Shown here in pieces: positions 523-45,515 of a DNA stretch of 46,630 nucleotides. The stretch is from the NCBI GenBank assembly GCA_964421865.1, contig CAYQZH010000005.1, positions 1-46,630 on the forward strand, written 5' to 3'. This DNA comes from an uncultured Phycisphaera sp. GTDB taxonomy: Bacteria > Planctomycetota > Phycisphaerae > UBA1845. Under the pieces are notes generated by a model. The model had not been told where the DNA came from and made no database searches. It worked only from the letters and a program-made list of their open reading frames with translations. Made by a program: the position numbers and the translations under genes. Every line of letters starts with the position of its first letter. Position 1 is the first letter of the stretch.

Positions 523-559
523 GCGGGGGTAGCTCAATGGTAGAGCATCAGCCTTCCAA
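523..559 (+). repeat. tRNA-Gly 5'-half copy 1 (att-like direct repeat)
   Basis: 36/37 identical to 45444-45480 (C>G at 528); ends at anticodon loop CTTCCAA. Confidence 0.95.
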
Positions 560-740
560 AATGCCGCTGTACTACATCACATCCAAAAAAGCGTGTTTTT
601 GGACCAGAAAACGCGGTTTCAGGAGGGGTCACGGGTCGATGAATCGACCCAAGTAGTACCCAATCGACCCGTTATGTAGTACAAAGAACCTCTCAAACAA
701 TTTCCGAACATTCTGGCATCCTGCGATCATGGTCGCCCGC
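560..740 (+). other. Conserved cassette left arm (putative integrase arm-type sites)
   Basis: ACTACATCAC 571-580, AAGTAGT 651-657 and ATGTAGT 674-680; same boxes and spacing follow the other two tRNA halves. Confidence 0.75.
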
Positions 741-940
741 TTCTTGCTTGTCATGGGCCAGCCCAAGTTGCGCTTCGACACACGGCGAGGAGAGCATCCA
801 CGGAGCCGCGCAAGCGGTGACATCGCAAGCGGTTGCGATGACCTCGAAGCGTCCAAAGCGTTATTCGGGAGCAGGGGGGGCAAAACGTCGAACGCTCGTT
901 GCCCGTGACAGCTCTCCTCGGTGGGACGACGTCGCTTTGG

Positions 941-1030
941 CAAGCGCTGCCCCAAGTCACTTCGAGTTCGTGTTGTAAGGCCTGAACCAGCAACTGGTTT
1001 CGTAACATGTCCTGCGGTTTCATAAACCGC
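941..1030 (+). repeat. ~90-bp dispersed site, copy A (putative recombination site)
   Basis: Ungapped alignment to 12438-12527 and 19748-19837 (53/90 to the latter, counted by hand); ends in palindrome GCGGTTT-CAT-AAACCGC 1014-1030. Confidence 0.7.
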
Positions 1031-1710
1031 GGATTGTCGATCAGGATGTGCGCGCTGGCTGTTCGCGTTTTCCCGGCTAGACGAGCATTTTGTCAGGCTG
1101 ATGAAGGCACGCACGCGGGCCGTTTGGGGGGTTGAGTCTATCATGGTCCACCGGAGTAGGCGGCTGCCCTTCGCGTTGCTGCAAGCGCCGCCACAGGACG
1201 TCGAAATTGCCGCTGGCACCGCCGAGTGCTTTCTGTCATTCCGATCCGCAATTCGTCTGTCGGCGTGTCACCAGTCGCCATGTCGCCGCATGACCGGATC
1301 GCGGATCGTTTCGATTCGAGTTCGACCGCTGCGACCTGTGGCTCGGGTCGCGATCGGACCTCGCTCACCGGGATCGAACGCCGCGAGCCCGGCGACGGAC
1401 GACGGGGTAGGAAAAGGCGCTTGGAAAGGGCCGAAGGCACGATGGGGGTGCACCGCTGCACGGTCGCACTCTGCGGTGCGAGGCCCGAGTCGGCTACACT
1501 CAGTCGTGTAGCCCGGCCCGACCGACCGTCGGTGCGTTTATTCCTTCGTGGTGCAAGCGACAGTGTTCGCACTTTCCCAACAATGGGAAGGCCCCGTGTC
1601 CACCTCGCCGCGCTTCAATCACCCCGAGTGTTCGCGTCGGTCCTACGCAGACCAATGAAACCACCAGCCGTTCCTTAAGTAGTGCGGTGATGCGTCGGGG
1701 TCGTATCGGC

Positions 1711-4700
1711 CTATCGGCCGGTGAAGCTTGTTTGCAGAATCGCGATGTCGGCGAGGTCGACGTCGCCGTCCGTATCGAGGTCGGCGGCGACGATTCCTTC
1801 CTCATCGGGTACGAGGGTGCATCCGGCGGGAAGGCTCGCCGGATCGTACGGGAGGCCCGGGCCGGTCATGCAGTTCTCGATTAGAACCAAGTCATCGAGG
1901 TCAACATCGCCGTCGGTATCGAGGTCCGGCGAGGCCGTCGGAACGACCACGAGCGTGATGTCCATTGACGAGTAGACCACATCGAACCGAAGACCGGGAC
2001 CGATGTTCAGACCGACCACGCGGGAGAATCGCCCAATGCGTGAGCCGAAGGTCATGACTGTGAATGTTTGGCCCAGTGTCGGTGAGAAAGCAGGATCGAG
2101 CTCAAGTTGAAGCACCCCGTCGAGTTCAGCGGATCCGGTGATGTTCAGCACATCGTAGGCCGCGGCGGGTTCAGCACCATTCAGTTCTATCTCGAGTGCC
2201 GCCGATTGACGTTGCGTGTAGCTGCCCACGATACTCAGGATGCCGGCGCTTAGTCCGGGTCGGACTATGCCGCCGTTGTTCGACACGGAAACAGTTAGGG
2301 TCCCGGTTCCGGTCAGCACCCCCCCTTGCAGGTCCAGGCGCGCCGACCTTAGCTGTCCGCCATTCAGACGGGTCACGCCGGCATCCTGGGTATAGACGCG
2401 ATCCAGATACAACTGCTCCAAGGTTCCGGTTTGCAGTTCGACGGTTCCCGAGTTGTGAAACGCCACCTCGCATTGCAGAGTTCCCGCACCCCGTTTGAGA
2501 AAGGTCCCGGTGTTGGTGAATCGCGCGCTTCCTGACCCGCCAAACAAGCCGTCGCTTACGGCGTCAAACGTTCCAGCATTCTCAAACCCGCCCGTGCCGC
2601 TCATGTTGAGGGACGTGTTCTGCCCGGCGTATGACGCGGTCTGCAAACTTCGAACCGCGCGGCTGTCACGCAAACCGAGGGCCCCAGACATCGCAACGTC
2701 ATTCTCGAAGACCGTCCGACCAGCCCCGATCATCGTGGCGGCCGTCCACGTGGATGGTCCGCTCGCACGCACCTCATCCGCGCCCGAAAGGAAACCTCCG
2801 GTTTGATCCAGTTGACCGACCGTCACTGTCTGGCCGGTGTTAAAGTTCACCGTACCTCCCCTCAAACGGAACGTCTGCACGTCGATCGCCTCATCACAGT
2901 TCAAGTTGACCGTGCCGCCGCCAACTTCCAGCGAATCTCCCAGGCTCAACACTGTCGACGCCGGAGTGAAATTCATCGTGTTGCCGTTGAGGGTCGTCTG
3001 TCGGGCCACGTCGTAAATGCCGTTCACGTTGACAATGGACCCTGACTCCGTGGTGACGTTGCCCGCCCTGATGGTGGAGGCCGGATCGAAGTCGAAGGTC
3101 TCGCTAACAAAGTTGAGCGAGGCGACCTCATCTCCCTGGAAAACACCGGTATGTGGCGTACTCGTACCCCCGGAGAGTTTGAGGATACCGCGCACAATGT
3201 TTACGACGCCGTGGTTGTTGAACTTAACGCCGACGTTCATCGTGCCGGGGCCGAGCTTATTGAACGTGCCATAGTTATGGAACAGCCCGTTGCCGGACTG
3301 CAACAACGGACCGTCGGACTCTGCGTTGAAGATGCCCGTGTTGTTGAACTCGGACGTACCCGACATTGTCAACACGGCGTCCGCCCCGGTAAATGTTGCC
3401 GTCGCCGGATTCTCCAAGGTACGATCGTCGGCAAGCACACCGTGGCCGGTGATGGTCATCCCGCCTGCGGCGGTGATCTGACCGGGTCCGCGAATATACG
3501 CTCCCTGCCATCCGCCGGACCAAAGAAATGACTCACTCACATGGATGTCGTCACCGCCTTCGATTGCACCATACGACTGGGTGAGGTTACGAATGCTCAC
3601 AGGTTTGCCGGTGTTGAAGTACACGTCAGCCATGTAACCGTGTGTGTACGTATCCAGCACAATCGGTTCATCGTTGTTGAAATGGACCGTGACCGAGCTT
3701 CCTTGGTGCGCCACCGCAATGAGATCTCGTCCCAAACTTCGCAGACTTCCCGTCGTAGTAAAGGTGATGGTGCCGCCGGTCATCGTCGTGGTACCGGTCA
3801 CGTCGTAGTGGCCGTCGATGGTCGCCTCTCCGCCGCCCCAAGCGTTGAAGACAACGCTCTCAGCTTCCACGCGCGAGCCGGGCGAAAAGGAGTGTATTCC
3901 GCGACCGAATTCCACCACGGCACCCGGCGAGCCCAGGCAGCGGGCGGAATCCGAGTGCTCGCTGCCTCCTCGCAACACGACCCTGCCTCCGATAACGCTC
4001 AGGTCGCCGTGGTTGATAAAATCGACACTGATATCAAGCGTATCCGGACCGGTTTTGCTGACCGTGGCGTAATTGAAGAAACGCGGCGAACCGTTCCACC
4101 TCTCGATGAATCCACCGGTGGCCGCAAACACGTCCCAGTTGATGAAATAGGCATTGTCCAACATGCGCATCCACGGGAGCGCCCCACCAAAAGACGTCGG
4201 AGACTCGGCACTGATGGACCGCTGGTCATAGAGCGTAACGGCAGCATTATCAATCAGAAGTCCGCCATGGGTTTCAATCAGCCCGTCGCCGCGAAGGTCA
4301 GCCGCCTGTAGCGATAAGAGACCATCCACCTCCGTGCTCCCCGGACCGTCGAGTGTTGCATAGCTGATCGTGAAATTGCTCTCCATGCGCGACCGATCCG
4401 TGGTCCGAAGCGTGCCGCCCGAGAGCACAAACCGCTCGGCGGAGCGGATCCCGAGTACTTCCGAGCCGCCTTGGGAATGAGTCACGGTGGACACGGTCGG
4501 AACATCGATACAGATATGATCGGCCGGACCGGGAACGTCGGAATTGTCCCAGTTGATGGGCTGATGCCAGAAGCCGTCACTCCCAATCCACGAGACGAAG
4601 GTTCCGCCGTCGCACTCGTCGGGCACGCCGTTGAGGTCGCAGTCCTGGGAAACGCCCGCGATTTCGCAGTCGTCGGGTACTTCGTTGGCATTGCAATCGG

Positions 4701-6758
4701 CTGCAAACCCGCAGCCAGGGACGTTGCAGAACGCCCCGAGACTTCCGAAACAGTCCACTTCGCAAAGATCGACGATTCCATTGTCGTTGCACTCGATGAT
4801 TTCGTAGGGCCCGAACGAAGTCACTTCCTCCTGCCAGTTTCCGGAGCAGTCGCCCGCGCGGATGATGAAAAAGTGCCTTCCGAGTTCAAGTGGCAGACTG
4901 GTCAACGGCGTTCCGCTGAAACCCGGGTCGGCATTAAAGTCCGGGACGGTATTGGGGTCCGACGACCACTCGTAGCTGAAGATTTCCGCGCCGGAGCCCT
5001 CGTCCGCCGGTGCGGTCCAGACGACCACGATCTCCGGGCTCGTCCCGCCCACGCCAAAGGGATGCGTGGGGGATACGAGTTCTGTGACGCGAGAGGGGGG
5101 AGTCCCGTCCTGCCAAGTGTATTCCCACCTCACGTTGTTGGCCGTTCGCCAAAGAGCGTTTTCATGCTCCGGAAATCGCGCTCTGAAGGCGTTGATGAAT
5201 TGGAGCACTGTGATCGGTTGGTCATGCGTAACTACTTCGAAGATTTCGTCAACGCCAAGATCGAGGGCGTCCTTCGCGCAGACCGGCTGCCCATCGTCTA
5301 CACCGTTGTTGTCCTGGTCCTCCATCTCGTCTTCAATGTCTCGAAGCAGGGCCCCGATGAACCCTTCGGTCTTGAACGGATCAACCAGATCGGGGATCCC
5401 ATCATTGTCGAAGTCATCCGCGATCCCGTCGTTGTCCTGGTCACAAATCCCGGTTCGTTCCAGGCTTCGGCCGAAGAGCGAGGTAATCCCATAGTCAGCA
5501 GGATACGACCGTGTTACTACGTCGGCCAACCAGTTCGGCCATCCTTCGTTCCAGGCGTCATGGAAATTCTCCGGACACCACATGCAGTGTCCTGGATTGG
5601 GGCAGCCCGCGCCGCCGTCGCAAAAACCGTTGCAGTAATCGGGAACCTCAGTCTGCGAAAAGTTATGCAAGAAATGATGGCCATACTCATGGGTGATTGT
5701 ACTCTCCTGCCACTGCTTGGCCGAACTAAGGAAAATCTCGTCGTCCAGGTATTCTGCGTTGTTCCCGCCCCCGGCACTATCCTCCGGCCATTGAACGTCG
5801 ACCTCGGGTACGTCGATTCCGGTCCGCGTTTCGATAAAACGATGGGCCCGCATGATGCGATTGAAGATGTGCAGAGCGGGGTGGTCGCGGGAAGCGTTGG
5901 GGCTGAGTTCGCCGAAGTCGATCTCCGATCCGGTGAAGTTCGGGAAATACAGGTCGTCCTTGGTGTCCCAGCTATAGTCTTCCTCGAAAACGCCGAGCTT
6001 TGGACGTTGACGACGCCCGTATCGCACTCCCATCGGACGTAAATGTCCGGGTCGTCGCACCCGGTGATGTCCCAGTCATCCCAGTTGAGGGTCACGTCGA
6101 AATACCCGTCAGCATCAGTCCGTCCCGACCACATCTCCTCGTCGAAAAAGTCATCGTCGAGGTCCATGATCTGCACCCAGATGCCATCCACGCCCATCGT
6201 TTGCGCGGGGATGTCATTCACGCCGTCTCCGTCGAGGTCCCGCGCGATCCGGTTATAGATGATCCTTCCCTGGAAATGGATCGTGTTCCCTCCCGCAACA
6301 TGACCGTCGCCCGCGGAGATGCGAGCGCCCTGCCGGCTTTGCGCCGGGCGCGGCTTACCCACCTTCGCAAAATACCCTGGGCTAAGATCCAAACTTTTCG
6401 CGGTCATCCGTCCGTTGAAACGGACGCTTACGCGCAGGGGCTTCGAGGAGTCCCCGGGTCGGGCGCGGAACGGAACGTCAACGACCTCGCCCGAACGCAC
6501 CTCTTGGGGAGTTTGTAAACCGAGCGGCTGAAGGGTCCAACTGTCGCCTTCCAGGGCGATGAAGTCGACCGTCCCGTCTCGCAATACTTGCAATCGGATG
6601 ACGCCGTCGTATTCTCTACCGGACACCGCCGGGCGTGTGTCGGCGGGCATGTGTATCTTCATGGGCGGACCGACGTCCGCCCAAACCGTTGTGACGCTTG
6701 CCGCGAAGAGCGCGCCGCAGAGAAGGAGTCTCGCTCGCCGTCCCCGTACGCCTCTCAT
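1711..6758 (-). pseudogene. Large secreted HEXXH metalloprotease / beta-helix / dockerin-like protein (~1680 aa), split by a 1-bp frameshift near 5995 (pseudogene or sequencing error)
   Basis: Signal peptide and RBS at 6758. ORF 5517..6758 reads ...VVNVQSS and continues as GVFEEDYSW in ORF 1711..6060. Contains HEYGHHFLH, DCNxNxVPDxC repeats, N/G/T-rich passenger-like repeats and paired C-terminal DLDTDGDVDLxD motifs. Confidence 0.8.
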
Positions 6759-6919
6759 GTCACCTCTCCCCGCCGTCTCTCACACCGCCACCGATGGTAG
6801 TGCGGATTGTTTTGCCCGCGTAGGGCGGTGCCCATGACCAGCATACCACGCCGCAGTAGCGTTCAATGGTGAAGACCGGGTCGCGCCGGGTGCGCTGCTG
6901 ACGGGCATCGTGCCTCTCC

Positions 6920-8506
6920 CTAAGGACCGGTAAACGCGTGCTCGAAAGCCGCATAATCGAATAGATCCACGTCCCCGTCGTTGTCCACGTCGAAATCGAA
7001 CGCGCCTGCATCGCACTGCCCGACATCAAGAGAGACAAAGTATTCGGACTGGTGCACGTCGTCACAGTCGACGACGGATCGGTCCGTTACCAGCAGTCGA
7101 ATGGTGTAGCAGCAGGGGCGCAGGCCCCGCGTGTCCCACGTTCCCAGCAGGCCGTGGACAACTGGAGCGTTGCCGTGGGCGTCGGGAATGGGAACCCAGC
7201 CGTGCTCGTCGCCTCCCGTATACCAGAGCGACCACCCGGCAAGGTGTGCGTCCGTTGCCGTCCCGACGATGTCAACCAGGCCATTGACACAACCGCAGTT
7301 GGTCGGCGTTGTAATGACGGCGGTGGGCCAGGCGTTGTCAATCGTCACATCGCGCGTCACCGTGGCCGTGTGGTTACAGAAGTCCGTGCCCCGAATGCGA
7401 ACGCGGTAATCGCCATCCGGAACGGCGGCCGCCCCCACCGCCGTATTCCACGAGGCGAACGGATCGAACGTAACCCAAGGGGGGCTCACTGAGTTAACGG
7501 GCAGGAACGCCCCCCCGGCGGCCGGCTGGTAGTCCACCGTGAAGGTTCCCGAGCAAGAGTCCCAAACGGTGCCGTCAAAACAGACGGAGCCGCCTGCGAT
7601 CAACCCGTTCGTCGGTTGCCGGACAACAAGGCTATCGAACTGGGTGTCCACGAAGACCCGATTCCGGTCCTCCGTCGACACGCCACAGCCGTTGTAACTG
7701 GTCAGCTTGAGAATGTAGTCGTCCTGCACATTCGGCGGGTTCCAGGCCGCGAGCACGTTGTTGACGACCGCGGTGTCGTTGAGAGCGATCAGGTGGAACG
7801 GATCACTTCCGTCGTCGCGCTGATAATGCAGCGTGTACCCTCCGAACTCGCCGTCTACGTCCCGGGCCGTTCCGATGACGTTGGCGCTGGTCTCGCAGAT
7901 GCATGTCCTGTGGGCGGGTGTAGTGATCACGGCCTCGGGCGGCGTTGCGTCCGCTGTGAACGTAAGGTCGTCGATCAACTCGAACCGCTCCGCGCACAGC
8001 CCCCCGGCGCCGGCCTCGATCTCGATTCGGCGGAAGCCCGCGGCCCGCTCAATACGGACGAAGACAAGAACCCGCTCGACGAGGTCTCCGTTCACCGGCA
8101 CATTCCGAAGCCCGACGCGGACGTCGGCGGCGTCGTACCAGCGAACCTGAACCGTATCGGTGGAGTTGCACCCGACGCGGACGCCGAGGTTGAAGGTCAC
8201 CGCGGTCTGGTCGATGTCAAAGGCGAGCCGAAGAAACTCCGGGCTGAACTCGTTCAGACCGTCGCCCCGGGCGCTTAGACACTGCGGCTCTGAGGTCGTT
8301 CCACCCGAGGGGTTGTAAATGATCGGATTGACTCCGGAAGTGCCGTCGGGATCGCGTCCGCTGAATCGGACGCCGGCGTACTGGGTCGTGACCACCGTTC
8401 CGACGGGAAGACCGTCGAAGTCGATTGTGGGACATTGGCCCCACGCTTCAACCCCATAACCGACGATCACCGAGAGAACTCCTCCGCACTTGAATATGCC
8501 CTTCAT
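6920..8506 (-). CDS. Secreted protein with three Ig-like repeats and C-terminal dockerin-like EF-hand motif
   Basis: ATG 8506 with AGGAG RBS, signal peptide, repeated PxAVITTP...L..W.....Y.LRL modules, ends DVDNDGDVDLFDYAAFEHAFTGP. Confidence 0.85.
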   Translation of the reverse strand: MKGIFKCGGVLSVIVGYGVEAWGQCPTIDFDGLPVGTVVTTQYAGVRFSGRDPDGTSGVNPIIYNPSGGTTSEPQCLSARGDGLNEFSPEFLRLAFDIDQTAVTFNLGVRVGCNSTDTVQVRWYDAADVRVGLRNVPVNGDLVERVLVFVRIERAAGFRRIEIEAGAGGLCAERFELIDDLTFTADATPPEAVITTPAHRTCICETSANVIGTARDVDGEFGGYTLHYQRDDGSDPFHLIALNDTAVVNNVLAAWNPPNVQDDYILKLTSYNGCGVSTEDRNRVFVDTQFDSLVVRQPTNGLIAGGSVCFDGTVWDSCSGTFTVDYQPAAGGAFLPVNSVSPPWVTFDPFASWNTAVGAAAVPDGDYRVRIRGTDFCNHTATVTRDVTIDNAWPTAVITTPTNCGCVNGLVDIVGTATDAHLAGWSLWYTGGDEHGWVPIPDAHGNAPVVHGLLGTWDTRGLRPCCYTIRLLVTDRSVVDCDDVHQSEYFVSLDVGQCDAGAFDFDVDNDGDVDLFDYAAFEHAFTGP

Positions 8507-8628
8507 GGTGCCGAACTCCTGTTTGTACCCTACACCCAAGCCGCACCCCGCGGCCCGTTGGCTACTGCTAATAGGCGCGGGCTACGCGCCGTTGGACGGG
8601 ACCACCGCTTTTTTACAGGATCCCGGGC

Positions 8629-8655
8629 ACGGATGGCCGTTGGGGCGGCTTACGC
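8629..8655 (-). promoter_or_regulatory. Candidate ECF promoter GCGTAAG-N16-CCGT for leftward cargo operon
   Basis: Same bipartite motif at 12605-12631 upstream of the rightward cargo operon. Confidence 0.35.
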
Positions 8656-8772
8656 GGATTGCCATCCACGGCGCCAATCGAGTAGGATCAAGCCGTGACA
8701 ACAGATCGCGGGTCGAGCGCCACGCCGATGTTCCCGCGAGTCGAAGTCGACCCGGCATGAAGAGATCCATTC

Positions 8773-9372
8773 GTGGACGCGGACGTCACCCGGGCCTCCC
8801 TTCTCTCGCGAGTGCGCGACGCCTCGAACGACGCAGCCTGGCGTGAGTTCGACGCCCGCTACCGCGAGTTGATTCTACGCTACGCCTTGGCCCGCGGGCT
8901 TCAACACTCCGACGCCCAAGACGTGCACCAGATCGCGATGCTCAGCCTGTCGAAGTCGCTACGGAACTTCCATTATACGGCCCAGCGCGGTCGGTTTCGC
9001 GATTATCTCGGACAAGTCGTGCGCAGCGCCCTCAGTCGGCATTTTGCGAGTCCAAAACCGGCGTCGGCGGCGCTAGATAGTAGTGTCCTGGCAAGCGTAC
9101 CGGCGGAGGACGGCGCGGCAGCGGATTCCCTCTGGGAACAGGAATGGGTAAACCACCATTACCGAGTCGCTATGCGGGTGATCCGCGAGACCTTCGAGCC
9201 ACGAAGCGTGGCGATGTTCGAGCACCTGCTCGCCGGGGCGGGCGTCGAGGAGGTGGCCGCCGCGCACGGCACGACGACGCAGGCCGTTCATAAGGTGAAA
9301 CAGCGAATCCGTGAAAGGATGAAGGAGCTTATCGCCCTTCAGATTCACGAAGAGGATCAGCCGGATGCATAG
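8773..9372 (+). CDS. ECF-type RNA polymerase sigma-70 factor
   Basis: TRASLLSRVR...AWREFDARY, DAQDVHQ, GRFRDYL region 2 and C-terminal HTH; overlaps the downstream kinase start. Confidence 0.92.
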   Translation: MDADVTRASLLSRVRDASNDAAWREFDARYRELILRYALARGLQHSDAQDVHQIAMLSLSKSLRNFHYTAQRGRFRDYLGQVVRSALSRHFASPKPASAALDSSVLASVPAEDGAAADSLWEQEWVNHHYRVAMRVIRETFEPRSVAMFEHLLAGAGVEEVAAAHGTTTQAVHKVKQRIRERMKELIALQIHEEDQPDA

Positions 9373-12527: not shown

Positions 12528-12604
12528 TGATTTTAGGGTTAGACGGTTGATCATCTTCGCCAGGATTCGGGCGCTGACGGATGGGGTGGCAACTCCTTTC
12601 CGAT

Positions 12605-35260: not shown

Positions 35261-35290
35261 AATGCGTAAATCGCCCGCCCGGGGCGTCAC
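35261..35290 (-). promoter_or_regulatory. Putative ECF promoter GTGACG-N18-CGCATT driving the cargo operon
   Basis: Identical boxes and spacing to 35381-35410 on the opposite strand. Confidence 0.65.
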
Positions 35291-35380
35291 CCAATCGAAG
35301 AAAATCGTTAGAATGTTGCTGCGAGCCTGAAGGGCTGGGTACGATGGACCGGCGAAACAACGACGTTTCCCTTGTCGCTC

Positions 35381-35410
35381 GTGACGCTTGTTCCGGTGTT
35401 TTTTCGCATT
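35381..35410 (+). promoter_or_regulatory. Putative autoregulatory ECF promoter GTGACG-N18-CGCATT
   Basis: Directly upstream of the ECF gene; twin of 35261-35290. Confidence 0.65.
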
Positions 35411-35459
35411 AGGTCGTTAGATGGGTTCGATGAGGGATCAGGAGTCAAGGCGGCCGAAC

Positions 35460-36047: not shown

Positions 36048-39000
36048 GTCCGGCGGATCGTGAACGCGTCAAAGGATTGCTCGCTCACGCCGCAGGTCTG
36101 CCTCCTCAGCAGCGCAGGGCGTTCATCGAATCCGCGGCCGCCGACCTCCCTGAAATCGCTACGGAAGCTCTCGACCTACTATCTACTCTCGACGACTCCG
36201 GCTTCATGAGCAAGCCCACCGGCGCGGGCTTTTCGGCAGAATCGGTTCCAACGACGGTTCCCCGCGAGCAACCCGGCGCCCGGGTCGGACGATACAAGTT
36301 GCTGCAACTCATCGGGGAAGGTGGATTCGGCTCGGTGTTCATGGCCGAGCAGACCGAGCCCGTCCATCGCCGTGTGGCCCTGAAGATCATCAAGGCGGGC
36401 ATGGACACCAAGCAGGTGATTGCCCGCTTCGAAGCCGAGCGCCAGGCTCTCGCGATGATGGATCACTCCAACATCGCTCGGGTCCTGGATGCCGGAGCCA
36501 CGGAGAGCGGCCGCCCGTACTTCGTGATGGAGCTGGTTCGCGGTGAGCCGATGACTCGGTACTGCGATCAAGAGCGGTTGCCGATTCACCGGCGACTCGA
36601 ATTGTTCCGCGACGTTTGCAACGCCGTTCAACACGCTCATCAGAAGGGGGTCATCCACCGTGACCTCAAGCCTTCCAATGTGCTCGTGACCGTCGCTGAC
36701 GGGGAACCGCTCCCCAAGGTGATCGACTTCGGCATCGCCAAGGCCGTTTCCGGCCGTCTGACCGACCGGACGCTTTTCACCGAGATGCATCAACTGATCG
36801 GCACGCCGGAGTACATGAGTCCCGAACAAGCCGAAGTGTCGGGCGTCGACATCGACACCCGCAGCGACATTTATTCGTTAGGAGTGATGCTTTACGAACT
36901 GTTGGTCGGGAGCACGCCGATCGATGGTGAACGACTGCGCTCCACGCCGCTCGCGGAGATCCAGCGGCTCATCTGTGAGGAAGAACCGCAAAGACCGAGC
37001 CTGCGCCTTGCAACGCTGGAATCATCGTCCGGGGCGCAGCTCTGGACGCCGCCGCAGGCGGCCGGCGATTCCGCCGAATCCTCCGCGATTGAGATCGCGC
37101 GGCGACGGCAGTCGGAGCCCATGCCTTTGACCCGCACCCTACGCGGCGACCTCGACTGGATCGTCATGAAGTGCCTGGAGAAGGATCGATCGCGCCGCTA
37201 TGCGACCGCCAGCGCCCTGGCAGAGGATGTGGCGCGCTATCTGTCGGACCAGCCGGTCCTCGCCACGCCCCCCAGCGCGCGCTACAAACTTCGCAAGTTC
37301 GTACACCGGAATCGAACCTTGGTGCTCGCCGGCGCCGCTGTCGCCGTTGTCCTTGTGTTGGGCGTCATCGGAACCACCCTCGGACTCGTTTGGGCCATGC
37401 GCGAACGGGGTCGGACCCACGAACAGAGGATCATCGCCGAGGCGAACGCCATCACGGCCCGCAGGGAGGCCGAGAGAGCCAACCGCGAGGCGGATCAGGC
37501 TCACGCTGTGGCGGATTTTCAAGCGCAGATGTTTGCGGACGTTAATCCGCAGACCATGGGGATCAAGTTGCGAGCGGATCTGTTGACCAAGGCGCGGGCG
37601 GCAGCGAAGCGATCGGGACGCAACACGGAAGAAATCGACACGCACGTCGAGGAACTCGCAAAGCTCATCGCCGGTATCGATCTCACCGGGATGGCCCTAA
37701 CGACACTCGACGAGAACGTTTTCCAAAGGGCCTTGGCCGTCATTGAAAGACAGTTCGCCGACCAGCCCTTAGTCAAGGCGCGGTTGCTGCAGACCATGGC
37801 CAGCACACTCCGCGAACTGGGTTTGCTCGATGCCGCGATTCGGCCGCAGGAACAGGCACTGGAGATCCGCCGCCAGGTGATTGGCAGCGAACACCCCGAC
37901 GCGCTCGCCTCGATCAGCGAGATGGGCCGACTGCGCCTTGCTCAGGGCAAGCTGACGGACGCTGAGCCGTACCTCCGCGAGGCCGTGCAGGGTCTCAGAC
38001 ATGTGCTGGGCGACGAGCATCCCGACACACTCAGATCGATCGTCAATCTCGGCCATCTGCTCCACGACCAGGGCAAGCTGGCGGAGGCCGAAGCTTTCTA
38101 TCGCGAAGCGATGGAGGAACTCCGCCGCGTGCTGGGTGATGACCACCCCGACACCCTCATTTCGATCGCAATCCTAGGCCAACTGCTTCAGGAAGAGAAT
38201 AGGCTCTCAGAAGCCGAACCGTACTTATATGAGGCGCTGGACAAGCGCCGCCGCGTGCTGGGCGACGAGCACCGTGACACGCTTGAGTCCATGAACAACG
38301 TGGCTATTCTGCTCCTCGCTCAGGGCAAGCTCAAAGAAGCCGAAGCGTACTTCCGCGAGTCCCTGGAGAAACATCGCCGCGTACTGGGCGACGAGCACCC
38401 CAATACGCTCAGCGCAATCAGCAACATGGGCATTGTGCTACGCGCCCAGGGCAGGCTTGCGGAAGTTGAACCGTATTACCACGAGGCGTTAGAGAAACGG
38501 CGCCGCCTGTTGGGCGACGAGCACCCCGACACGCTTACGTCGATCCACAACATGGGCTTCCTGCTCCAGGCGCAGGGCAAGCTCGCGGAGGCCGAGCCGT
38601 ATTGCCGCGAAGCGATGGAAAAGTGGCGCCGGCTGCTCGGCGACGAACACCCCGACACTCTGATAGCGATCAATAATATGGGCGTTGTGCTCCTGACCCA
38701 AGGGAGGCTGTCCGAAGCAGAGCCCTTCTGCCGCGAGGCGATGGAGAAACGCCGCCGTGTGCGCGGCGAAGAGCACTTGGACACGCTCATTTCGATTAGT
38801 AACATGGGGAATCTTCTTCAGGCACAAAGCAAACCCGCGGAGGCCATTGGACTAATGGCCCCGGTAGAGCCTGCGGCTCGCCAGGCATTCGCCGGCAATC
38901 CGGTGCGCCTGGGCCGCTTCCTGACCGCACTCGGACGTGCGCGCGTGTCTACCAAAGAGTTCGACGCCGCAGTGGCCAACCTGAGCGAGGCCCATGCCAT

Positions 39001-39166
39001 CTTGAGCGAGGCAAAGGGCGCAACGGACCGGGACCGCATTGACGTTTTGAGCGGCCTGGTGAAACTCTACGAGGTTTGGCATTCCGCCGAGCCGGATCGA
39101 GGCTACGACACCAAGATGGCCGAATGGCGCGTCAAGCTCATCGAATCGCAAGCAGGGCAAGACTAG
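36044..39166 (+). CDS. Membrane Ser/Thr protein kinase with TPR repeats
   Basis: TTG start overlapping ECF stop (TTGA); GEGGFG, HRDLKPSN, DFG, SPE; one TM segment; many 42-aa LGDEHPDTL repeats. Confidence 0.95.
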   Translation: MSPADRERVKGLLAHAAGLPPQQRRAFIESAAADLPEIATEALDLLSTLDDSGFMSKPTGAGFSAESVPTTVPREQPGARVGRYKLLQLIGEGGFGSVFMAEQTEPVHRRVALKIIKAGMDTKQVIARFEAERQALAMMDHSNIARVLDAGATESGRPYFVMELVRGEPMTRYCDQERLPIHRRLELFRDVCNAVQHAHQKGVIHRDLKPSNVLVTVADGEPLPKVIDFGIAKAVSGRLTDRTLFTEMHQLIGTPEYMSPEQAEVSGVDIDTRSDIYSLGVMLYELLVGSTPIDGERLRSTPLAEIQRLICEEEPQRPSLRLATLESSSGAQLWTPPQAAGDSAESSAIEIARRRQSEPMPLTRTLRGDLDWIVMKCLEKDRSRRYATASALAEDVARYLSDQPVLATPPSARYKLRKFVHRNRTLVLAGAAVAVVLVLGVIGTTLGLVWAMRERGRTHEQRIIAEANAITARREAERANREADQAHAVADFQAQMFADVNPQTMGIKLRADLLTKARAAAKRSGRNTEEIDTHVEELAKLIAGIDLTGMALTTLDENVFQRALAVIERQFADQPLVKARLLQTMASTLRELGLLDAAIRPQEQALEIRRQVIGSEHPDALASISEMGRLRLAQGKLTDAEPYLREAVQGLRHVLGDEHPDTLRSIVNLGHLLHDQGKLAEAEAFYREAMEELRRVLGDDHPDTLISIAILGQLLQEENRLSEAEPYLYEALDKRRRVLGDEHRDTLESMNNVAILLLAQGKLKEAEAYFRESLEKHRRVLGDEHPNTLSAISNMGIVLRAQGRLAEVEPYYHEALEKRRRLLGDEHPDTLTSIHNMGFLLQAQGKLAEAEPYCREAMEKWRRLLGDEHPDTLIAINNMGVVLLTQGRLSEAEPFCREAMEKRRRVRGEEHLDTLISISNMGNLLQAQSKPAEAIGLMAPVEPAARQAFAGNPVRLGRFLTALGRARVSTKEFDAAVANLSEAHAILSEAKGATDRDRIDVLSGLVKLYEVWHSAEPDRGYDTKMAEWRVKLIESQAGQD

Positions 39167-39339
39167 CCTGAGACTGTGACCCAAGGCCCTGTACCTCCTG
39201 AGACTTGAGTTTCGATACTCGCCAGGGGCGTTCTCCCGCCGAATCTCGAATTGCTCGGCCTCGATCGGACGCGGCCGAGTCGCTGCTGGTGTCGGCCCAG
39301 CCACACGTCTCCGACAATTTCTTCCCTCCCGCCCGGTAA

Positions 39340-39468
39340 AGGGGGCGGACCCTCGAATCGCTGATTCAACTCCATGAAGCGCGCCACGCGGACATGCCCG
39401 TCAACGGCTTCGATGCAAAGGCCACCGAATGGCGAGCCCGCCTCGCGCAACGCAGGTCAGACCCTTAA
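39340..39468 (+). pseudogene. Relic 3' end of another kinase-TPR gene
   Basis: Translates TLESLIQLHEARHADMPVNGFDAKATEWRARLAQRRSDP*, matching the C-termini of the neighbouring kinases (VLSGLVKLYEVWHSAEPDRGYDTKMAEWRVKL). Confidence 0.75.
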
Positions 39469-39672
39469 CCATGCGCCGGTTCCGCAATCAGATTACGTTC
39501 CGAAGCGCATCGCGAGGCCTATCCGGAGATGGCGTTTGGAGCTCGTGCGTGACTTGTTGGACACCGCAATTCAGGTATCTTCAGCTGTTATGTAGTATGG
39601 AGGTGGGTTGGACGATGCGGCGCAGAAGGACGCCGGGAGGATACGTAAACTACCGTAAATTAAAAGGTTAAT

Positions 39673-39708
39673 GCGGGCGTAGCTCAATGGTAGAGCATCA
39701 GCCTTCCA
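39673..39708 (+). repeat. tRNA-Gly 5'-half copy 3
   Basis: 36/36 identical to 45444-45479, then a 1-nt insertion relative to copy 2. Confidence 0.95.
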
Positions 39709-39885
39709 GAGATAACCGAGCACTACATCACGGGTCGAAAAACGGCCTTGGCGCTGTCGAAATCGCGGTTTTTGGGGATTGATCCGGCTCGATGGTTCGA
39801 CCCAAGTAGTATCAGTTCGACCGGAAATGTAGTGCGAGAAATTTTCGCGGAATGGCATCGGAAACCGCGGTCAGGTTGGTATCCG
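39709..39885 (+). other. Cassette 3 left arm
   Basis: ACTACATCAC 39722-39731, AAGTAGT 39804-39810, ATGTAGT 39827-39833; clearly similar to 20099-20280. Confidence 0.75.
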
Positions 39886-40050
39886 CCTCGCTTGCAGAAC
39901 GGGTCAATCGAGCCTCACTCGTGGGTCTACGATCGAACAACGTCATACGACCATTGCGATTCTCAGTTCTGTTGCGCTGCCGCAGGAGCCCGTGTTGGTG
40001 TCAATGCCTCAATTGACGCAGGACCGGTCGTTCGGCCCGTTCATGGCAAT

Positions 40051-41644
40051 CTACTGGCCGGTGAAGGAAACGCTCATTTTGGCGAAGTCGGCGAGGTCCA
40101 CGGTTCCACGGGCGTTGATGTCGAAGCAGCGGCAATCCAGCTCGACGGCCTCTGCCGGACCCGTCAGACAACTCTCAAAAAGCCCGTGGTCGAATAGATC
40201 CACGTCGCCGTCGTCCTGACAGTCGCCCGGTGGGATTTCAAACCAGAAACCACCTGTCCGTTCGAAGTCGCCGCCGCTCAGGCGTCCGGCGTCGGCCTGT
40301 CCGATGGTGCCGGAGAGTTCGAACGCACCTCCGTTGCTTCGCACCACGCCCCCACCGTCAACTGTGTTCCAGGGCAAGTCGAGTTTGGTGGTCGGAGCGG
40401 TCGTGCCGATACCGACGTTTCCCGAAACTGGATTCAAGGAGAGATTCTGCCAGGCTGTTTGCGTCGCATCGTGGCCGCCGAGCGTCGCGACCCCGTTCAC
40501 TTCTCCGAGCACAACCGACGCGGCCTCGCCTCCTGCGGGGATTCCACCCTCCCAACTGGATCCAATTCCCTTGACCTGAAGCGCAAAGTGGGTGTGCGGC
40601 GTCGCGGTGCCAATGCCTGTCCGGCCCTGGACGATCAGGCCGTCGGTAGGGGCCGCATTGAGACCCGAATAGCTGGAGCCGATGGCCGCGGCGCCCTCGA
40701 CGTCCAACCGATTCGCCGGCACGCCGGTGCCGATTCCAACGTTGCCGTTGCCCTTGATGCGCAAGCTCGATAAATGAACTACTGGAACCGGCGCCGAAGG
40801 CGATGTCCGTGAGGACTCCGTCCGAATGCATCTGCAAGAGGCCCGGCTGAATTCCGAATCCGTAGTGGTTACTCGACTGCCCGTAAAGGCTGATCTTGTC
40901 GCCCCCGGTATCGGCGAACGAGAGTGGGAATCCTGGTGTCGTCGTCCCGACCCCGATGGACCCGCCAAAGTAGCTTTTTCCGTCGTCGAAATAGCCGGCG
41001 AACCCGTTGTTGGCCGCACTGCCGTAAACGCCGATGTCTTTTGTCGAGTCATAGAAGGAGAGCGCCGCAATCCCTGCGCGGCTTAGACTCACCACGCCCC
41101 AGGTCGCACTCGTGGAAGCAGACTGGTTCCCAAACGCCGCCAAGCCACCGCCGGAAATCGCCGCGCCATCGACGGCATCAACGGTAAGTACGGATCCCAG
41201 GATTCCCTGCGACGGCGCCCCTTTGATGACTGCCCCCGGACTGAGCATTAATGCGTGCGGTGTCGCGGTCAACGGCTGGCGCGGACTCAGCGTCGTGCCG
41301 TCCACCTCGATCTGCAGCCAACGGGCGCCGCCATCGAAGGCGCCAAGTCCGAATTCATCATGCGCCTTGACCGTCACGGTGAACAAGCCGTTCACGACCT
41401 CGACGCCGTTGATCGATTGTTCACTCCCGATCTGCGCGCCGCCGGTCGGCGGATCGCCCACGCCCGGTGAGTCGAAGAGCGTAAAGAGGAAATCCACGGT
41501 TCCATTCATGGGAAGACCGGCATCCTTGAGCTGTCCTTGGTAGGTGAACGAACCGGCCCAAGCCGGCGTTGTCAGGCAGGCCAAAAGAATTCCAAGTGTC
41601 AGGCAAGTTGCATGACACGAACCGTTCTGTCGGTCTCTTTCCAT
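40051..41644 (-). pseudogene. Secreted FTYQGxL / GNVGIGT fibre-like protein, frameshifted near 40765 and apparently fused to a WxTxDGGG-dockerin module
   Basis: GAGGAG RBS and ATG 41644, signal peptide, FTYQGQL. Frame switches from SSSFIE to LRIKGNGNVGIGT. Ends with DCQDDGDVDLFD...VDLADF..FTGQ. Confidence 0.75.
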
Positions 41645-41839
41645 CGACAATCTCCTCAACCATTCGAAGCGCCATCGAGTTCGTAGGCATCCTGCGACCA
41701 CGTCATCGCGTTGCGGTAGCCCACGTCCCGGCGCTTCCACCCTCATCCACACGATCTGGGCCCGGAACGGTCGGAAAAAGGCAAGATCGATGGGCAACGT
41801 CTGCTAACCGCCGCAACATGGCCGCTTCGGCCGTTCTTT

Positions 41840-41867
41840 TTGAGGCGGCAACCCCGAGCGATATAAT
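41840..41867 (+). promoter_or_regulatory. Sigma70-like promoter TTGAGG-N16-TATAAT for ECF gene
   Basis: Perfect -10 at 41862-41867, 35 nt upstream of TTG start. Confidence 0.5.
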
Positions 41868-41902
41868 GAAGTACCCCTGGGAACGCCCCACGGAGTCGCG
41901 CC

Positions 41903-42703
41903 TTGGAACAGCAAGCTGGAAATGTAACAGTCTTCCTAGCCCGACTCTCGGCGGGCGAGACCGGCGCGGCCGAACGCCTGCTTCCGGTAGTCTATGAGGA
42001 GCTCCGCGCATTGGCAGGCCATTACTTCAAGAAGCAGCGGTCGGACCACACTCTTCAGCCCACGGCTCTGGTCCACGAGGCTTACCTGAAGCTGATCGGT
42101 CAGGAGCGCCCTGAGTGGCAGAGTCGGGCGCATTTCCTGGCCGTGGCCGCGACCGCCATGCGCCAAATCCTGGTCAACCATGCTCGGGACCGAAAAGCGG
42201 TAAAACGCGGCGGAAGTGATCGACACCGGATCACCCTCGACCGGGCGCTCGCGGCCGTGGAGTCCGATGTCGTGGATGTCATCGACCTCGATGACTCGCT
42301 TTGCAGGCTGGCGGCGTTCAGCGAGCGGCAGGCGCGCGTGGTCGAACTACGAGCATTCGGCGGTCTGACCATCGAGGAGGCGGCGCACGTTTTGGGCGTC
42401 GGGCAGACCACAATCAAATCGGATTGGCAGTTCGCTAAGGCCTGGCTCAAGCGCGAACTGGCCGCGACCAACGGATGGACGCGGCTAGGCATGAGCGTAT
42501 CGTCGACATTTTTGTGCGCGCCAAGGCGTTGCCGTCGGAGCAGCGTCGCGGGCTTATCGATGAGGCCTGCGCCGAGGACCTCGGGCTGCGCGCCGAAATC
42601 GAGTCGCTTCTCGCTGCTGACGAACGCGAGGTCTCGTTTCTCGATGCTCCCCGAGAGGGTGGGGTCGTCGCGGTCATTGCTGGTCACGACGACGATGCGC
42701 TGA
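41903..42703 (+). CDS. ECF-type sigma factor (TIGR02999-like); sigma-like sequence ends ~42478, apparent stop-loss extension
   Basis: LLPVVYEELR, HTLQPTALVHEAYLKL, KRGG, WQFAKAWL. TGG at 42476-42478 sits where an ATGA overlap stop would be expected. Confidence 0.88.
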   Translation: MEQQAGNVTVFLARLSAGETGAAERLLPVVYEELRALAGHYFKKQRSDHTLQPTALVHEAYLKLIGQERPEWQSRAHFLAVAATAMRQILVNHARDRKAVKRGGSDRHRITLDRALAAVESDVVDVIDLDDSLCRLAAFSERQARVVELRAFGGLTIEEAAHVLGVGQTTIKSDWQFAKAWLKRELAATNGWTRLGMSVSSTFLCAPRRCRRSSVAGLSMRPAPRTSGCAPKSSRFSLLTNARSRFSMLPERVGSSRSLLVTTTMR

Positions 42704-45000
42704 TCGGGACACGCGTCGGTCCCTACGAGCTCCGGCGATTGGTGGCGACCGGGGGGATGGGCGTCGTCTACGAGGCTATGCAGCAACATCCGCACCGAAT
42801 CGTCGCCCTAAAGCTCATGCGCCACGGCTTCAGTTCAGCAAGCACGCTTCGTCGATTCCAGCTCGAAGCCGAAATGCTCGGGCGCTTGCAGCATGTCGGC
42901 ATCGCACAGGTTTACGACGCGGGGATTCACAAGTCGCCCACGGGCATGCAGATCCCGTACTTCGCAATGGAACTCATTCACGGCACCGCGCTTACGGAGT
43001 ACGCACAACAGCAGAGGCTTGGCACGCGTGATCGATTGGCCCTCCTAGCCAGCGTGTGCGACGCCGTAGAGCACGCCCATCAAAAAGGCGTCATTCATCG
43101 CGACTTGAAACCCGCCAATGTCCTGGTTGACGCCGGCGGGCAGCCTAAGGTTCTCGACTTCGGCATCGCCCGCGTGACGGACGCCGACCTCGGCACGACC
43201 ACCATGCCCACTTCCGTGGGACAGCTCTTGGGCACACTTCCCTACATGAGTCCTGAACAGACAAGCGGCAATCCTGCGGACTTGGATACCCGGTCGGACG
43301 TGTACTCGCTCGGCGTTATCCTCTACGAGTTGCTGACGGACCGTCTTCCCTATGATCTGAGTCAGCACTCGATCGCCGGCGCTGTACGCGTCATCCAGGA
43401 AACCGAACCGATTCGCTTGTCATCGATCAATCGCGTGTTACGCGGTGATCTCGAGACGCTCGCGGCTAAGGCGTTGGAGAAAGATAAGGAACACCGCTAC
43501 GGTTCGGCGGCCGCATTGGCGGCCGACATTCTTCGATATCTCATGGATCTGCCCCTGTCCGCGCGCCCGGCAAGCACGTTCTATCAACCCCGTAAGTTCG
43601 CAAAACGCAATCGCGGCCTGGTCGCAGCGGCGAGCCTGTGCTTGCTCCTGCTCGTCGGCGGAGTCACCGGAACGACTATGGGATGGGTCTCCTCGAATCG
43701 CGCCAACCGAAAGCTCGCCGAGGCCGTCGTCGAGGCTACCACGCAGCGCGACCGCGCCCGCGACAGCGAAGCTAAGGCTACGACGGAAGAAGCTAAGGCT
43801 ACGACGGAACTCGCCCGCAGCCAAGAAATCGCGGAGTTCATGCGGTCCATGCTACAGTCGGTGAACCCGGCGGTCGCCCGCGAGCGAGACACGACGCTGC
43901 TACGCGAAATCTTGGAGCGTGCGGTCAAAAAGATCGAGTCCGGCGAACTATCCGATCAATCGGTAGTCGAGGCGGAGATGCGATCAACGATCTCGGAGAC
44001 GTACGCCAGCATCGGCGACAACGCTGCTGCACTACGCGTGATTGAGCCGGCCATACAGATGGCACGCGCCGCTCCGGTTGACCAGGCAGCGTCGTTCCTC
44101 CATGCGAGGATTCTCTACGCGACCACGTTGGTCGTGTGGGGTCGATACGCCGACGCAAGGGCCGAATTCGAGCAGGCCGTGGCGATTCACCAAGGCGCGG
44201 GTCTCCCGGAGGATGAGCAAGCGGGCGTGCTCTACTCCAACTTTGGAGGAGTTCAGTCCCATCTCGGGAATGCGGAGTAAGCGCTGCAACTACATCAGCG
44301 TGCACTCGAAATCCGTAAACGCCTTCGGGGGGAGAAGTCGGGCGATGTCGCTGCCGCGATGGGAAACATCGCCGGTGTTCTACAGAACCTGGAGCGTTAC
44401 GACGAGGCGCTCCCGATGTTGCAGGATGCACTTGCGATCTACCGTGGCGCGGACCCGCCGCGCCTGCTGCACATCACCATCGTTGAAAACAACATGGCCG
44501 AGGTGCTTCTGCTGATGAACCGTCCGATTGACGCTGAGCAATTCGCACGAGACGCGCTCGAGATCTGTGTACGGGTTTTCAAGCCCGATCACCAGCAGAT
44601 TGGGTTTGCGACACATACTCTGGGCCTCGCCCTGCGTGTCCAGGACCGTCACGTTGAAGCCGTCGAGCAGTTCGCCAAGGCGGCGCAGATCGTCAGGAGC
44701 GCGTTTGCCGACAGCCATGAGTTTGTTGCGACGGCGCGGATGGACTTGGGCGTTGCGCTGGTCGCCACTGGCCGATACGCCGAGGCTGAACCAGAACTGC
44801 TCTCGGCCTGCAAGGCATTCGATGAGCGGGATGGCGGGCCGGAAACGTCGATCGAATGCATCCGCGCCGTGGTGGACTTGTACCGGGCCTGGGACAAAGG
44901 CGAGTTTGCCAACCGACATGACGCGGAATTGCTACGCTGGAGGGCCCGGCTCCACGAGCTCGACTCGCAGGCTCCATCCCAAACCCCAGGCGGGGATTAG
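42475..45000 (+). pseudogene. Ser/Thr kinase-TPR gene interrupted by in-frame TAA at 44278-44280
   Basis: HRDLKPAN, DFG, SPE; the same frame resumes ALQLHQRALEIRKRLRGE and continues through ORF 44359..45000. Confidence 0.88.
43768..43809 (+). repeat. Perfect 21-bp tandem duplication (EAKATTE x2)
   Basis: GAAGCTAAGGCTACGACGGAA twice. Confidence 0.95.
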
Positions 45001-45254
45001 GCCTGCGGCAGCTCCGAGTCCGTTGGCCTCAAAGCATAGCAAGCCGACCAGACGCTCATGTGGCGAAAAGCGTGGACGGTCGGTGCACGCTGGTCGCATG
45101 TCCCTGCTGGTCTAACGGGACCGGTCCTAATCCAGGGCCACCTGCCACACAGGTCGTTCGGCTGTGCGATGATCATGTCAGCGGGAAATGACCATTCCCC
45201 GGCATCCCTACTGCGGAGCCGAGGCAGTAACCCGCCGGCCTTCATCTCTATCCT

Positions 45255-45443
45255 GGCTTCGAGAGCATTCAGCTTTTCGAGCTGATGCTCAAATCGAGAA
45301 TCGGCGTTTTGGGGCCGCTAGGGCTTGTTTTGGCTGCCGATTCGAGTATCTTTGACGATTATGTAGTGCAAAGCGGCTTGTTCGAAATGTAGTGCAGAGA
45401 TCGGCGATAATGTAGCGTAAGTCATTGTCGTTGCGGTAGTTAC
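45255..45443 (+). other. Cassette 3 right arm
   Basis: Hairpin 45263-45290; ATGTAGT 45361 and 45387, ATGTAGC 45410, CGGTAGT 45434. Confidence 0.65.
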
Positions 45444-45515
45444 GCGGGCGTAGCTCAATGGTAGAGCATCAGCCTTCCAAGCTGAACGTTGACGGTTCGA
45501 GTCCGTTCGCCCGCT
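45444..45515 (+). tRNA. tRNA-Gly (anticodon TCC), CCA not encoded
   Basis: Cloverleaf: GCGGGCG/CGCCCGC acceptor, GCTC/GAGC D-stem, TCAGC-CTTCCAA-GCTGA anticodon arm, GACGG-TTCGAGT-CCGTT T-arm. Confidence 0.97.

Follow-up and report, generated by a model that had tools for sequence, protein, structure and literature searches.

A tandem array of integrase-less islands on the 5′ side of a tRNA-Gly gene in a Phycisphaera metagenome bin

We analyzed a stretch of 46,630 nucleotides (the window) that is the whole of contig C5 of a metagenome bin from an uncultured Phycisphaera sp. (GCA_964421865.1; 408 contigs, 89.55% complete). Upstream of its intact tRNA-Gly gene the window holds three partial copies of that gene, each followed by a multi-gene unit (units 1, 2, and 3; 5.7–19.6 kb), and we estimate with a probability of roughly 70% that the window represents a tandem array of three integrase-deleted islands of one family, of the kind that leaves 5′ fragments of its target gene at tRNA-Gly. 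The units are bounded by attachment (att) sites of one architecture, the repeated motifs in their arms pair within units, and related units in other genomes carry an integrase, here designated IntX, that was not found in this genome. The case is a decayed form of a known mode of island building, and is neither a new system nor an integron-like one. Genomes, contigs, and loci are labeled below as Gnnn, Cn, and Lnnn, respectively; the source genome is G000 and G001 is its congener.

Att-site junctions at the tRNA-Gly anticodon loop

A single tRNA gene, tRNA-Gly(TCC), was identified on the contig by both ARAGORN and Rfam (Table 1). With up to one mismatch allowed, a 31-nt segment from the 5′ part of this gene gave four hits on the + strand, against an expectation of 0 matches from dinucleotide shuffles; none of 100 shuffles reached four. 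The three partial copies beginning at positions 523, 20061, and 39673, together with the intact gene at 45444, had been reported in a prediction made earlier from the sequence alone (the original prediction) and were confirmed, with 36 or 37 of 37 positions matching the gene. The differences are a C6G change in the stem of copy 1 and an A to G change at the last loop base of copy 3. All three fragments lie in the same orientation upstream of the intact gene and, also as predicted, lose identity with it at the anticodon loop, CTTCCAA. The crossover is placed in this loop, as the 3′ fragment of a neighboring island (described below) begins at tRNA position 29, and the two kinds of fragment thus overlap on the loop.

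The segments between these copies were borne out as discrete units that have att sites, at the anticodon loop, as their boundaries. A 5′ half, presumably with the tRNA promoter, lies at the right end of each, and therefore the gene is restored and the units pile up upstream of it, as had been proposed. The X arm of unit 3 contains a weak promoter-like site for the tRNA (45382–45411). The intact gene received its 5′ half from unit 3, and its 3′ half is of the same type as that in the downstream island.

The tRNA halves are flanked by conserved arms, which the original prediction had overlooked together with the integrase gene that follows the tRNA and the UPF0236 insertion sequence (IS) at copy 1. 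The arm repeat, (A/T)(A/T)GTAGT(A/G), is common to an upstream X arm and a downstream Y arm of ~165 nt. From the tRNA half outward, the Y arm comprises a spacer of 11–12 nt, the short motif in inverted orientation (ACTACAT), an A-rich stretch ending AAACGCGGTTTT, the GGTCGATGAATCGACCC core, and two direct copies of the repeat ~23 nt apart. This full set (inverted repeat, AAACGCGGTTTT, GGTCGATGRATCG core, and two direct repeats) was found at all three junctions in the window, which align with five junctions from other genomes (eight aligned in total). X arms with one to three direct copies of the motif precede half 2, half 3, and the intact gene (X2, X3, and X4, respectively); within ~85 nt upstream of the half, X2 has two direct repeats and X4 has three, while X3 has only one. 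The motif in the X arms of the window is the same as that in its Y arms, and AAAACCGCGTTT, which follows the motif copies before half 2, is the inverted partner of a Y-arm sequence. The window has 12 ATGTAGT sites, 10 of them within ~130 nt of a junction, and clusters of at least three copies of the motif occur, genome-wide, at the junctions of this contig only. No match to Rfam was obtained in the arms.

tRNA-Gly halves followed by the same sequence, which the original prediction had suggested seeking in other Planctomycetota, are indeed present there. They were found with the same Y arm at tRNA-Gly(TCC) in G001, G003, G029, and one further metagenome-assembled genome (MAG; L040), and at tRNA-Gly(CCC) in G002 (two on one contig), G029, G047, G018, and G063. 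The genome collection yielded 46 tRNA-Gly(CCC) half-junctions, of which 23 match a model of the Y arm (nhmmer, E ≤ 1e-3), one of the 23 being a training sequence of that model. A further 15 of the 46 have a different repeat, typical of Acidobacteriota records. The Acidobacteriota junctions (L252–L295, e.g., L267:456-2784) carry GYGTTC repeats, followed in L267 by genes for ParA-like and RepA proteins, which suggests integrative plasmid-like elements.

The array of G063, our complete-chromosome example, lies on a 4.24-Mb contig and consists of a junction, 26 kb, a second junction, 28.5 kb, and the intact gene. Its arm motifs are GTAGAGC in Y_a and X_b and GTTGTG in Y_b and X_c, so that each Y motif matches that of the next X arm and the arms therefore belong to the units. 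The same pairing within units occurs in G001 (GTTGTGC) and G029 (GTAGAGC).

IntX in the relatives and its absence from the window

In G063 the IntX gene (413–431 codons) points away from the tRNA piece, from a start ~95–110 nt upstream that falls within the X arm; two full-length copies that are 66% identical to each other are present at X_b and X_c, and a remnant at X_a. Full-length IntX genes were also found in G029 (two, at both X arms on C9), G001 (two, on C260 and C345), G035, and G018 (with one stop). Where 1.4 kb or more of sequence precedes the X-arm site, IntX is full length at 8 of 19 sites, a remnant of 25–291 aa at 4, and absent from 7, three of which are X2, X3, and X4 of the window. 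In the source genome no IntX was detected at E ≤ 0.01, either by tblastn or with a hidden Markov model (HMM) of nine IntX sequences (best HMM E-value 0.018). Homologous units thus normally carry their own integrase, a finding that the original prediction had itself named as grounds for refuting its candidate for an undescribed system, and that reading is not supported.

The further statement that the units encode no recombinase held as far as it was tested, in searches with PF00589, PF00239, IntX, and the integrase that neighbors the array (IntR). On this contig nothing matched PF00589 or PF00239 when the genome was scanned in six frames, although the PF00589 scan is too insensitive on its own, having missed both the truncated integrase of the window and the IntX of relatives. 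No IntR match was found in the units, since tblastn with the neighboring integrase matched only its own gene at 45635–46630 on the contig. As for the companion claim that relaxases and phage proteins are missing, no such family was seen among the open reading frames (ORFs) run through Pfam and PHROGs (in PHROGs, one of 10 window ORFs gave a weak repeat-type match and the other nine gave none), no search being aimed at relaxases.

IntX was barely recognizable by the usual profile methods. Pfam matched one of three copies, scoring 21.3 bits where the cut-off is 27.1, a PDB profile search returned no relevant match, and hhalign against IntR gave a probability of 3%; the fold search was the one decisive test of its identity. 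The predicted structure (mean predicted local distance difference test score 70.7) has an N-terminal domain of three strands and a helix, and the top Foldseek matches of the model were lambda Int, XerA, Tn1549 Int, and Cre (50 matches at E ≤ 0.001). The alignment with lambda Int (1z1b_B) spans 400 columns over the whole length with E 2.6e-07 and 16% sequence identity. Residues K271, R345, H369, and Y379 are invariant in IntX, and its 429 database relatives are named site-specific integrase by their sources. These features make IntX a divergent, lambda-like tyrosine recombinase. The likeness to phage lambda extends to its attP, in that arm motifs lie on both sides of the core with one inverted; unlike lambda, the target is a tRNA anticodon loop, the IntX gene is on the 5′-half side of attP, and no Xis, IHF, or Fis sites were identified here.

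Three IntX proteins encoded beside GTAGAGC arms have one N-terminal pattern (...LGWHVAFRD...PRKH) and two beside GTTGTG arms have another (...GWHV(S/A)YRD...RHRFGI). This co-variation of the N-terminal 40 residues with the arm motif fits an arm-binding domain, and presumably it is this domain that binds the repeated motif. The arms next to the IntX gene at X(111124) on C9 of G029 are of the TGTAGTA type.

We propose that the circular form of such an element would have an attP composed of X arm, tRNA 5′ half, loop, and Y arm, with the anticodon loop of tRNA-Gly as its target. Upon integration, the chromosomal 5′ half would stay at the left end of the island, followed by the Y arm, and the X arm and 5′ half of the island would join the chromosomal 3′ half to rebuild the gene. 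Repeated integration would stack islands upstream of the intact tRNA, and the expected junctions, which agree with the layout of the window, would be B-loop-Y at the outer left, attP-like at inner positions, and X-5′ half-loop-3′ half, the working gene, at the right. Autonomous members of the family encode IntX, with its start within the X arm and its frame directed away from the half. The three units of the window would have lost IntX; they keep their arms, regulators, and giant secreted or Rhs/Tc-like cargo, with unit 3 decayed further. The signs of decay are a stop in the unit-3 kinase gene, the loop change in copy 3, the stem change in copy 1, and the IS beside copy 1. The att architecture, its pairing within each unit, and the presence of IntX in relatives but not here are observed; entry of the islands through IntX-type recombination, a deletion of IntX as opposed to its never having been there, and the present fixation of the units are inferred.

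Several observations weigh against this reading. Neither tblastn nor the HMM revealed an IntX pseudogene remnant in the window, so the deletion is deduced and not seen. The sigma factor and kinase genes abut the X arm alike in units 2 and 3 and in the unit of G047:C8, three units that lack an integrase and represent two families. Of only six PF07638 sigma genes found in the source genome (E ≤ 1e-5), units 2 and 3 hold two and C126 another two; the recurrence of this layout without IntX makes it possible that units lacking an integrase propagate in that form. Long-dead relics would not be expected to have arms and 5′ halves as nearly intact as these. In G001 (L035:3245-11995, G001:C260), homologues of the Rhs/Tc-like and LamG genes of unit 2 (57–78% identical) stand directly behind an intact tRNA-Gly, with no half and Y arm between, which the simple stacking model does not explain. 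The genome is incomplete, and an IntX gene may therefore be unassembled. Finally, no empty site was found in a close relative with conserved flanks, the left flank being an IS and the flanks of the array giving no alignment at E < 1e-10 with G001–G004, G006, or G029; one left-flank gene has a 69% homologue in G029, 2.3 kb downstream of the tRNA. A clean empty site was likewise not obtained for the tRNA-Gly(CCC) unit of G029, homologous cargo being located elsewhere in G040 and G044.

It is possible, but in our estimation a good deal less probable than deletion and fixation, that the three units are active non-autonomous satellites moved by a matching TGTAGT-type IntX from an autonomous relative. 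They would then resemble cis-mobilizable elements (CIMEs), which are integrase-less, att-bounded, found in tandem with integrase-bearing elements, and thought to be deletion derivatives of autonomous elements; CIMEs have been described for streptococcal families of integrative and conjugative elements at other targets. The units of the window are similarly att-bounded without an integrase, the function of their att sites being predicted from sequence, and differ in that the helper is absent from this genome and that there are no conjugation genes. Activity would be in keeping with the retention, by all three units, of both arms in full and of 5′ halves that are close to perfect, and with the single arm motif common to them, by which one IntX could serve all three. 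A TGTAGTA specificity does exist, in the G029 IntX mentioned above, the sigma-kinase-X-arm layout without IntX recurs in G047, a member of another family, and IntX is entirely absent at 7 of the 19 X-arm sites. However, no IntX that could drive movement was found anywhere in this 89.55%-complete genome, the changed loop base of copy 3 would hinder exchange with its neighbors, the unit-3 kinase gene is broken, and no L-type junction was found in viral contigs, which gave 0 matches to three junction and arm patterns. The even depth and the lack of att joints point the same way, although weakly, as the contigs are broken at the repeat. With the same reserve we would entertain the broader proposal that integrase-less units, with their sigma factor and Ser/Thr kinase genes right at the X arm, form a self-propagating satellite lineage that would keep only its att arms and its 5′ half with promoter, borrow a matching IntX, and so move among Planctomycetota. 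If so, tRNA-Gly would be a shared landing pad that collects and exchanges regulators and giant-surface-protein or toxin modules.

A classical island behind the tRNA and the continuity of the array

The gene for IntR begins 120 nt past the tRNA and is cut by the contig end. The full-length 391-aa protein (P0002) is 100% identical to IntR and matches PF00589 with E 2.9e-15; IntR has 1176 homologues at E ≤ 0.001, and PF00589 is present in most of the best 120 of the 1176. Contig C196 (locus L301) encodes the last 24 aa of IntR and, ~7.9 kb on, has a 44-nt copy of tRNA positions 29–72. An integrase gene after the tRNA, cargo, and a 44-nt 3′ fragment together define a classical island (tRNA-int-cargo-3′ fragment), ~9.3 kb in length, with cargo that includes a 787-aa Toprim/DUF3987 protein. 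Past the fragment, C196 continues with another such arm and the start of a further integrase gene, so that the 3′ side has a tandem array too. The arms of the classical island have a different motif, CTACCCG, and a palindrome of the GGGTAG..CTACCC type. The tRNA is accordingly an integration hotspot for two unrelated att systems, one on either side, with crossover in the same loop. The three units have accreted in tandem next to classical islands. Members of the IntR family lie 120–200 nt behind a tRNA in 10 of 11 related loci, at various tRNAs; those in the source genome follow tRNA-Met and tRNA-Arg, with 3′ fragments that start at position 33 on other contigs.

Three other readings were rejected. 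Judged by their arm palindromes (GGGTAG..., CGTATC...), which differ from the motif of the units, neither IntR nor its paralogues (C80, C11) would be suited as a helper. A nested composite, i.e., one element that contains the whole tRNA and has an attP of P-loop-Y, was dismissed because the arm motifs pair X with Y and P with P′, and not P with Y. An integrase beside a Y arm inside the G003 unit (G003:C286; L032 2147-3151), where it follows a tRNA-Pro(GGG), was considered as the elements' own, but its metagenome relatives (L172–L174) follow tRNA-Pro(GGG) or its 3′ part, and it is therefore the ordinary integrase of an island nested within an island.

The original prediction had viewed the array as an integron-like cassette platform, which in its fullest form would have the resident integrase (45635–46630) capturing and stacking cassettes at the tRNA as its primary site. 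Integrons resemble the array in that their units are split by recombination sites and a tyrosine recombinase gene sits at one end, and IntR does lie beside the intact tRNA, at the array end where a new unit would land. We nevertheless regard this explanation as very improbable. IntR belongs to a mobile island of its own, bounded by the 44-nt 3′ fragment 7.9 kb downstream, and to a family of ordinary tRNA-int islands found behind many tRNAs (the 10 of 11 loci noted above). Its arm motif is not that of the units, and the same unit arrays exist in G029:C9, G047:C8, and G063, all of which lack IntR. The units themselves are multi-gene islands of 5.7–19.6 kb with their own regulators and, in relatives, their own integrase. 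Unlike integrons, there is here no IntI-type platform, and what is stacked are islands of 4–8 genes and not promoterless ORFs with attC.

Several other observations on partial tRNA genes and integrases were made in these genomes. On another contig of the source genome (G000:C11:22835-22939), a duplicate 17-nt match to the D arm lies 88 nt upstream of tRNA-Asn and may be another partial tRNA copy. Another integrase family is convergent with tRNA-Gly(CCC) in G063 (G063:C1:4231900-4232586, L299) and G029 (G029:C41:143503-144179, L160/L161). In G063 the integrase frame enters the tRNA gene across the anticodon loop, so that the gene end overlaps the att site, which resembles the Mx8 case named in the Islander paper (PMC4383910). 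Four ~44-nt fragments of the 3′ part of tRNA-Gly(CCC) at G029:C41:223171-246578, 80–103 kb downstream of the intact gene, point to a long 3′-side array of classical islands.

There is very little likelihood that the repeats are not att sites and arose as an assembly artefact or by local duplication of the tRNA promoter region and 5′ half: the bin does consist of 408 contigs, and Logan contigs break at every tRNA half, but the 37-nt repeat is shorter than the 55 nt by which contig ends of the assembly overlap, making an artefact unlikely, and the copies have differing flanks, a single architecture that is conserved elsewhere (including on the 4.24-Mb contig), and arm motifs that pair within units. 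In Logan contigs from a run of a second study, units 2 and 3 and the integrase are present with 0 differences and are broken at the tRNA halves, and the order of the units is therefore not independently confirmed. Those of four runs on 26631–46630 all end at tRNA halves, the listed joints falling in kinase/TPR paralogues, and no joint at the att sites was found among these contigs, all of which break at the repeat. Depth was even over units 2 and 3 and the integrase, as measured on contigs that break at the repeat.

Unit cargo and relation to known systems

Each unit encodes, on the + strand, a sigma factor followed by a Ser/Thr kinase with TPR repeats, among 4–8 genes in all (Table 1). Paralogues in different units are only 30–46% identical, indicating separate acquisitions and not recent duplications. 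In unit 2, the genes for the Rhs/Tc-toxin-like protein, in which Pfam identified SpvB, TcdB_toxin_midN, FG-GAP, and RHS repeats, and for the LamG protein are side by side within 21234–33511 on the − strand. The decay of unit 3 is evident in its kinase gene, where the TPR repeats carry on in the same frame past the stop at 44278–44280, and in its minus-strand ORFs at 40051–41797, which have no coding signal in GC content at third codon positions (GC3). Internal repeats were also noted in two cargo genes: seven tandem 126-nt TPR-coding repeats in the kinase gene of unit 2 (37878–38797), and three repeats of ~740 nt each in a 1210-aa ORF of unit 1 (17157–18944).

Copy 1 has no X arm and is adjoined instead by a UPF0236 transposase gene, which we take to be of the ISLre2 type, and a repeated IS end. 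The ORF at 3–254 (−) is open at its end, and its continuation on C49 (L300) matches PF06782 with E 1.5e-07; the ~60-nt repeated end (452–518) recurs on C376, C248, C183, and C115 at 95–98% identity. The original sequence to the left of the array is thus hidden by an IS insertion.

Table 1. Positions of the tRNA-Gly copies, att-site arms, units, and neighboring genes in the window.
Feature	Position	Strand	Details
IS transposase gene (UPF0236), 5′ part, with repeated end; left flank	3–518	−	ORF, PF06782
tRNA-Gly 5′ half, copy 1; left att junction of unit 1	523–559	+	36/37, C6G, ends CTTCCAA
Unit 1	560–20060		
Y arm, unit 1	560–690	+	Inverted repeat 570–577; AAACGCGGTTTC 609–620; GGTCGATGAATCGACCC core 634–650
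Direct arm repeats in Y arm, unit 1	651–658 and 674–681	+	
Cargo, unit 1	629–19924	both	Pfam; GC3 frame analysis
Large secreted-type proteins, unit 1	1711–6060 and 6920–8539	−	
Sigma-70-like gene, unit 1	8773–9372	+	
Ser/Thr kinase with TPR repeats, unit 1	9365–11944	+	
Ig-like giant proteins, unit 1	12732–15959 and 15931–19563	+	
X arm, right end of unit 1	19985–20060	+	Repeats 19988–19995, 20040–20047; AAAACCGCGTTT 20049–20060
tRNA-Gly 5′ half, copy 2	20061–20097	+	37/37 identical
Unit 2	20098–39672		
Y arm, unit 2	20098–20230	+	Inverted repeat 20108–20115; core 20174–20190; direct repeats 20191–20198, 20214–20221
Cargo, unit 2	20418–39166	both	Pfam
Minus-strand genes, unit 2		−	266 aa; Rhs/Tc-toxin-like, 2180 aa; LamG, 1912 aa; 557 aa
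Extracytoplasmic function (ECF) sigma factor, unit 2	35421–36047	+	
Ser/Thr kinase with TPR repeats, unit 2	35978–39166	+	
X arm, right end of unit 2	39590–39672	+	One clear repeat, 39590–39597; weakest X arm
tRNA-Gly 5′ half, copy 3	39673–39709	+	36/37, loop changed to CTTCCAG
Unit 3	39710–45443		
Y arm, unit 3	39710–39843	+	Inverted repeat 39721–39728; core 39787–39803; direct repeats 39804–39811, 39827–39834
Cargo, unit 3 (decayed)	40051–45000	both	
ECF sigma factor, unit 3	41903–42703		
Ser/Thr kinase-TPR gene, unit 3	42475–45000	+	In-frame stop 44278–44280
X arm, right end of unit 3	45361–45443	+	Arm repeats at 45361, 45387, 45410
Intact tRNA-Gly(TCC)	45444–45515	+	ARAGORN, Rfam
P′ arm of the separate classical (3′-side) island	45516–45634	+	Palindrome CCGGGTAGGACTACCCGG at 45595–45612
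Tyrosine integrase IntR, cut by contig end	45635–46630	+	Full length 391 aa

Islands with 5′ fragments, tandem arrays, and stacking with partial tRNAs are all already known. According to figures given in the Islander paper, a minority of 159 of 3919 islands have a 5′ tDNA (tRNA gene) fragment, 2083 islands have an anticodon-centered site, and there are 125 tandems of at least two islands and four of at least three (PMC4383910). The islands with 5′ fragments are like those of the window in having an intact tDNA with fragments in the same orientation, an anticodon-loop crossover, and an island that supplies the displaced part. Array members were, by the rule stated there, accepted only with their own integrase (PMC4383910), whereas the three units here have none. 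The account of tycheposons in Prochlorococcus describes elements stacked beside a tRNA and separated only by partial tRNA copies, with newcomers pushing older elements inward; decayed remnants and incomplete tRNA copies are spread through the islands (bioRxiv 10.1101/2020.12.28.424599). The units of the window are also stacked at a tRNA and separated by partial tRNAs, although in another phylum and with another integrase family. Going by its result entries alone, a literature search found no description of the IntX family and its arm layout.

The striking repeat pattern of the window is explained in ordinary terms, and hence there is no cause to pursue it as a new recombination system. It does carry a warning, as both the units and IntX will escape island finders that depend on PF00589 or on the presence of an integrase. 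The array documents a coherent family of integrative elements in the little-studied Planctomycetota (Phycisphaerae-type MAGs) that uses the less common 5′-side configuration at tRNA-Gly, with an attP of defined layout and a divergent integrase mostly missed by Pfam, and it shows the decay of such elements into integrase-less islands with ECF sigma factor and kinase genes and giant secreted or Rhs/Tc-like proteins.

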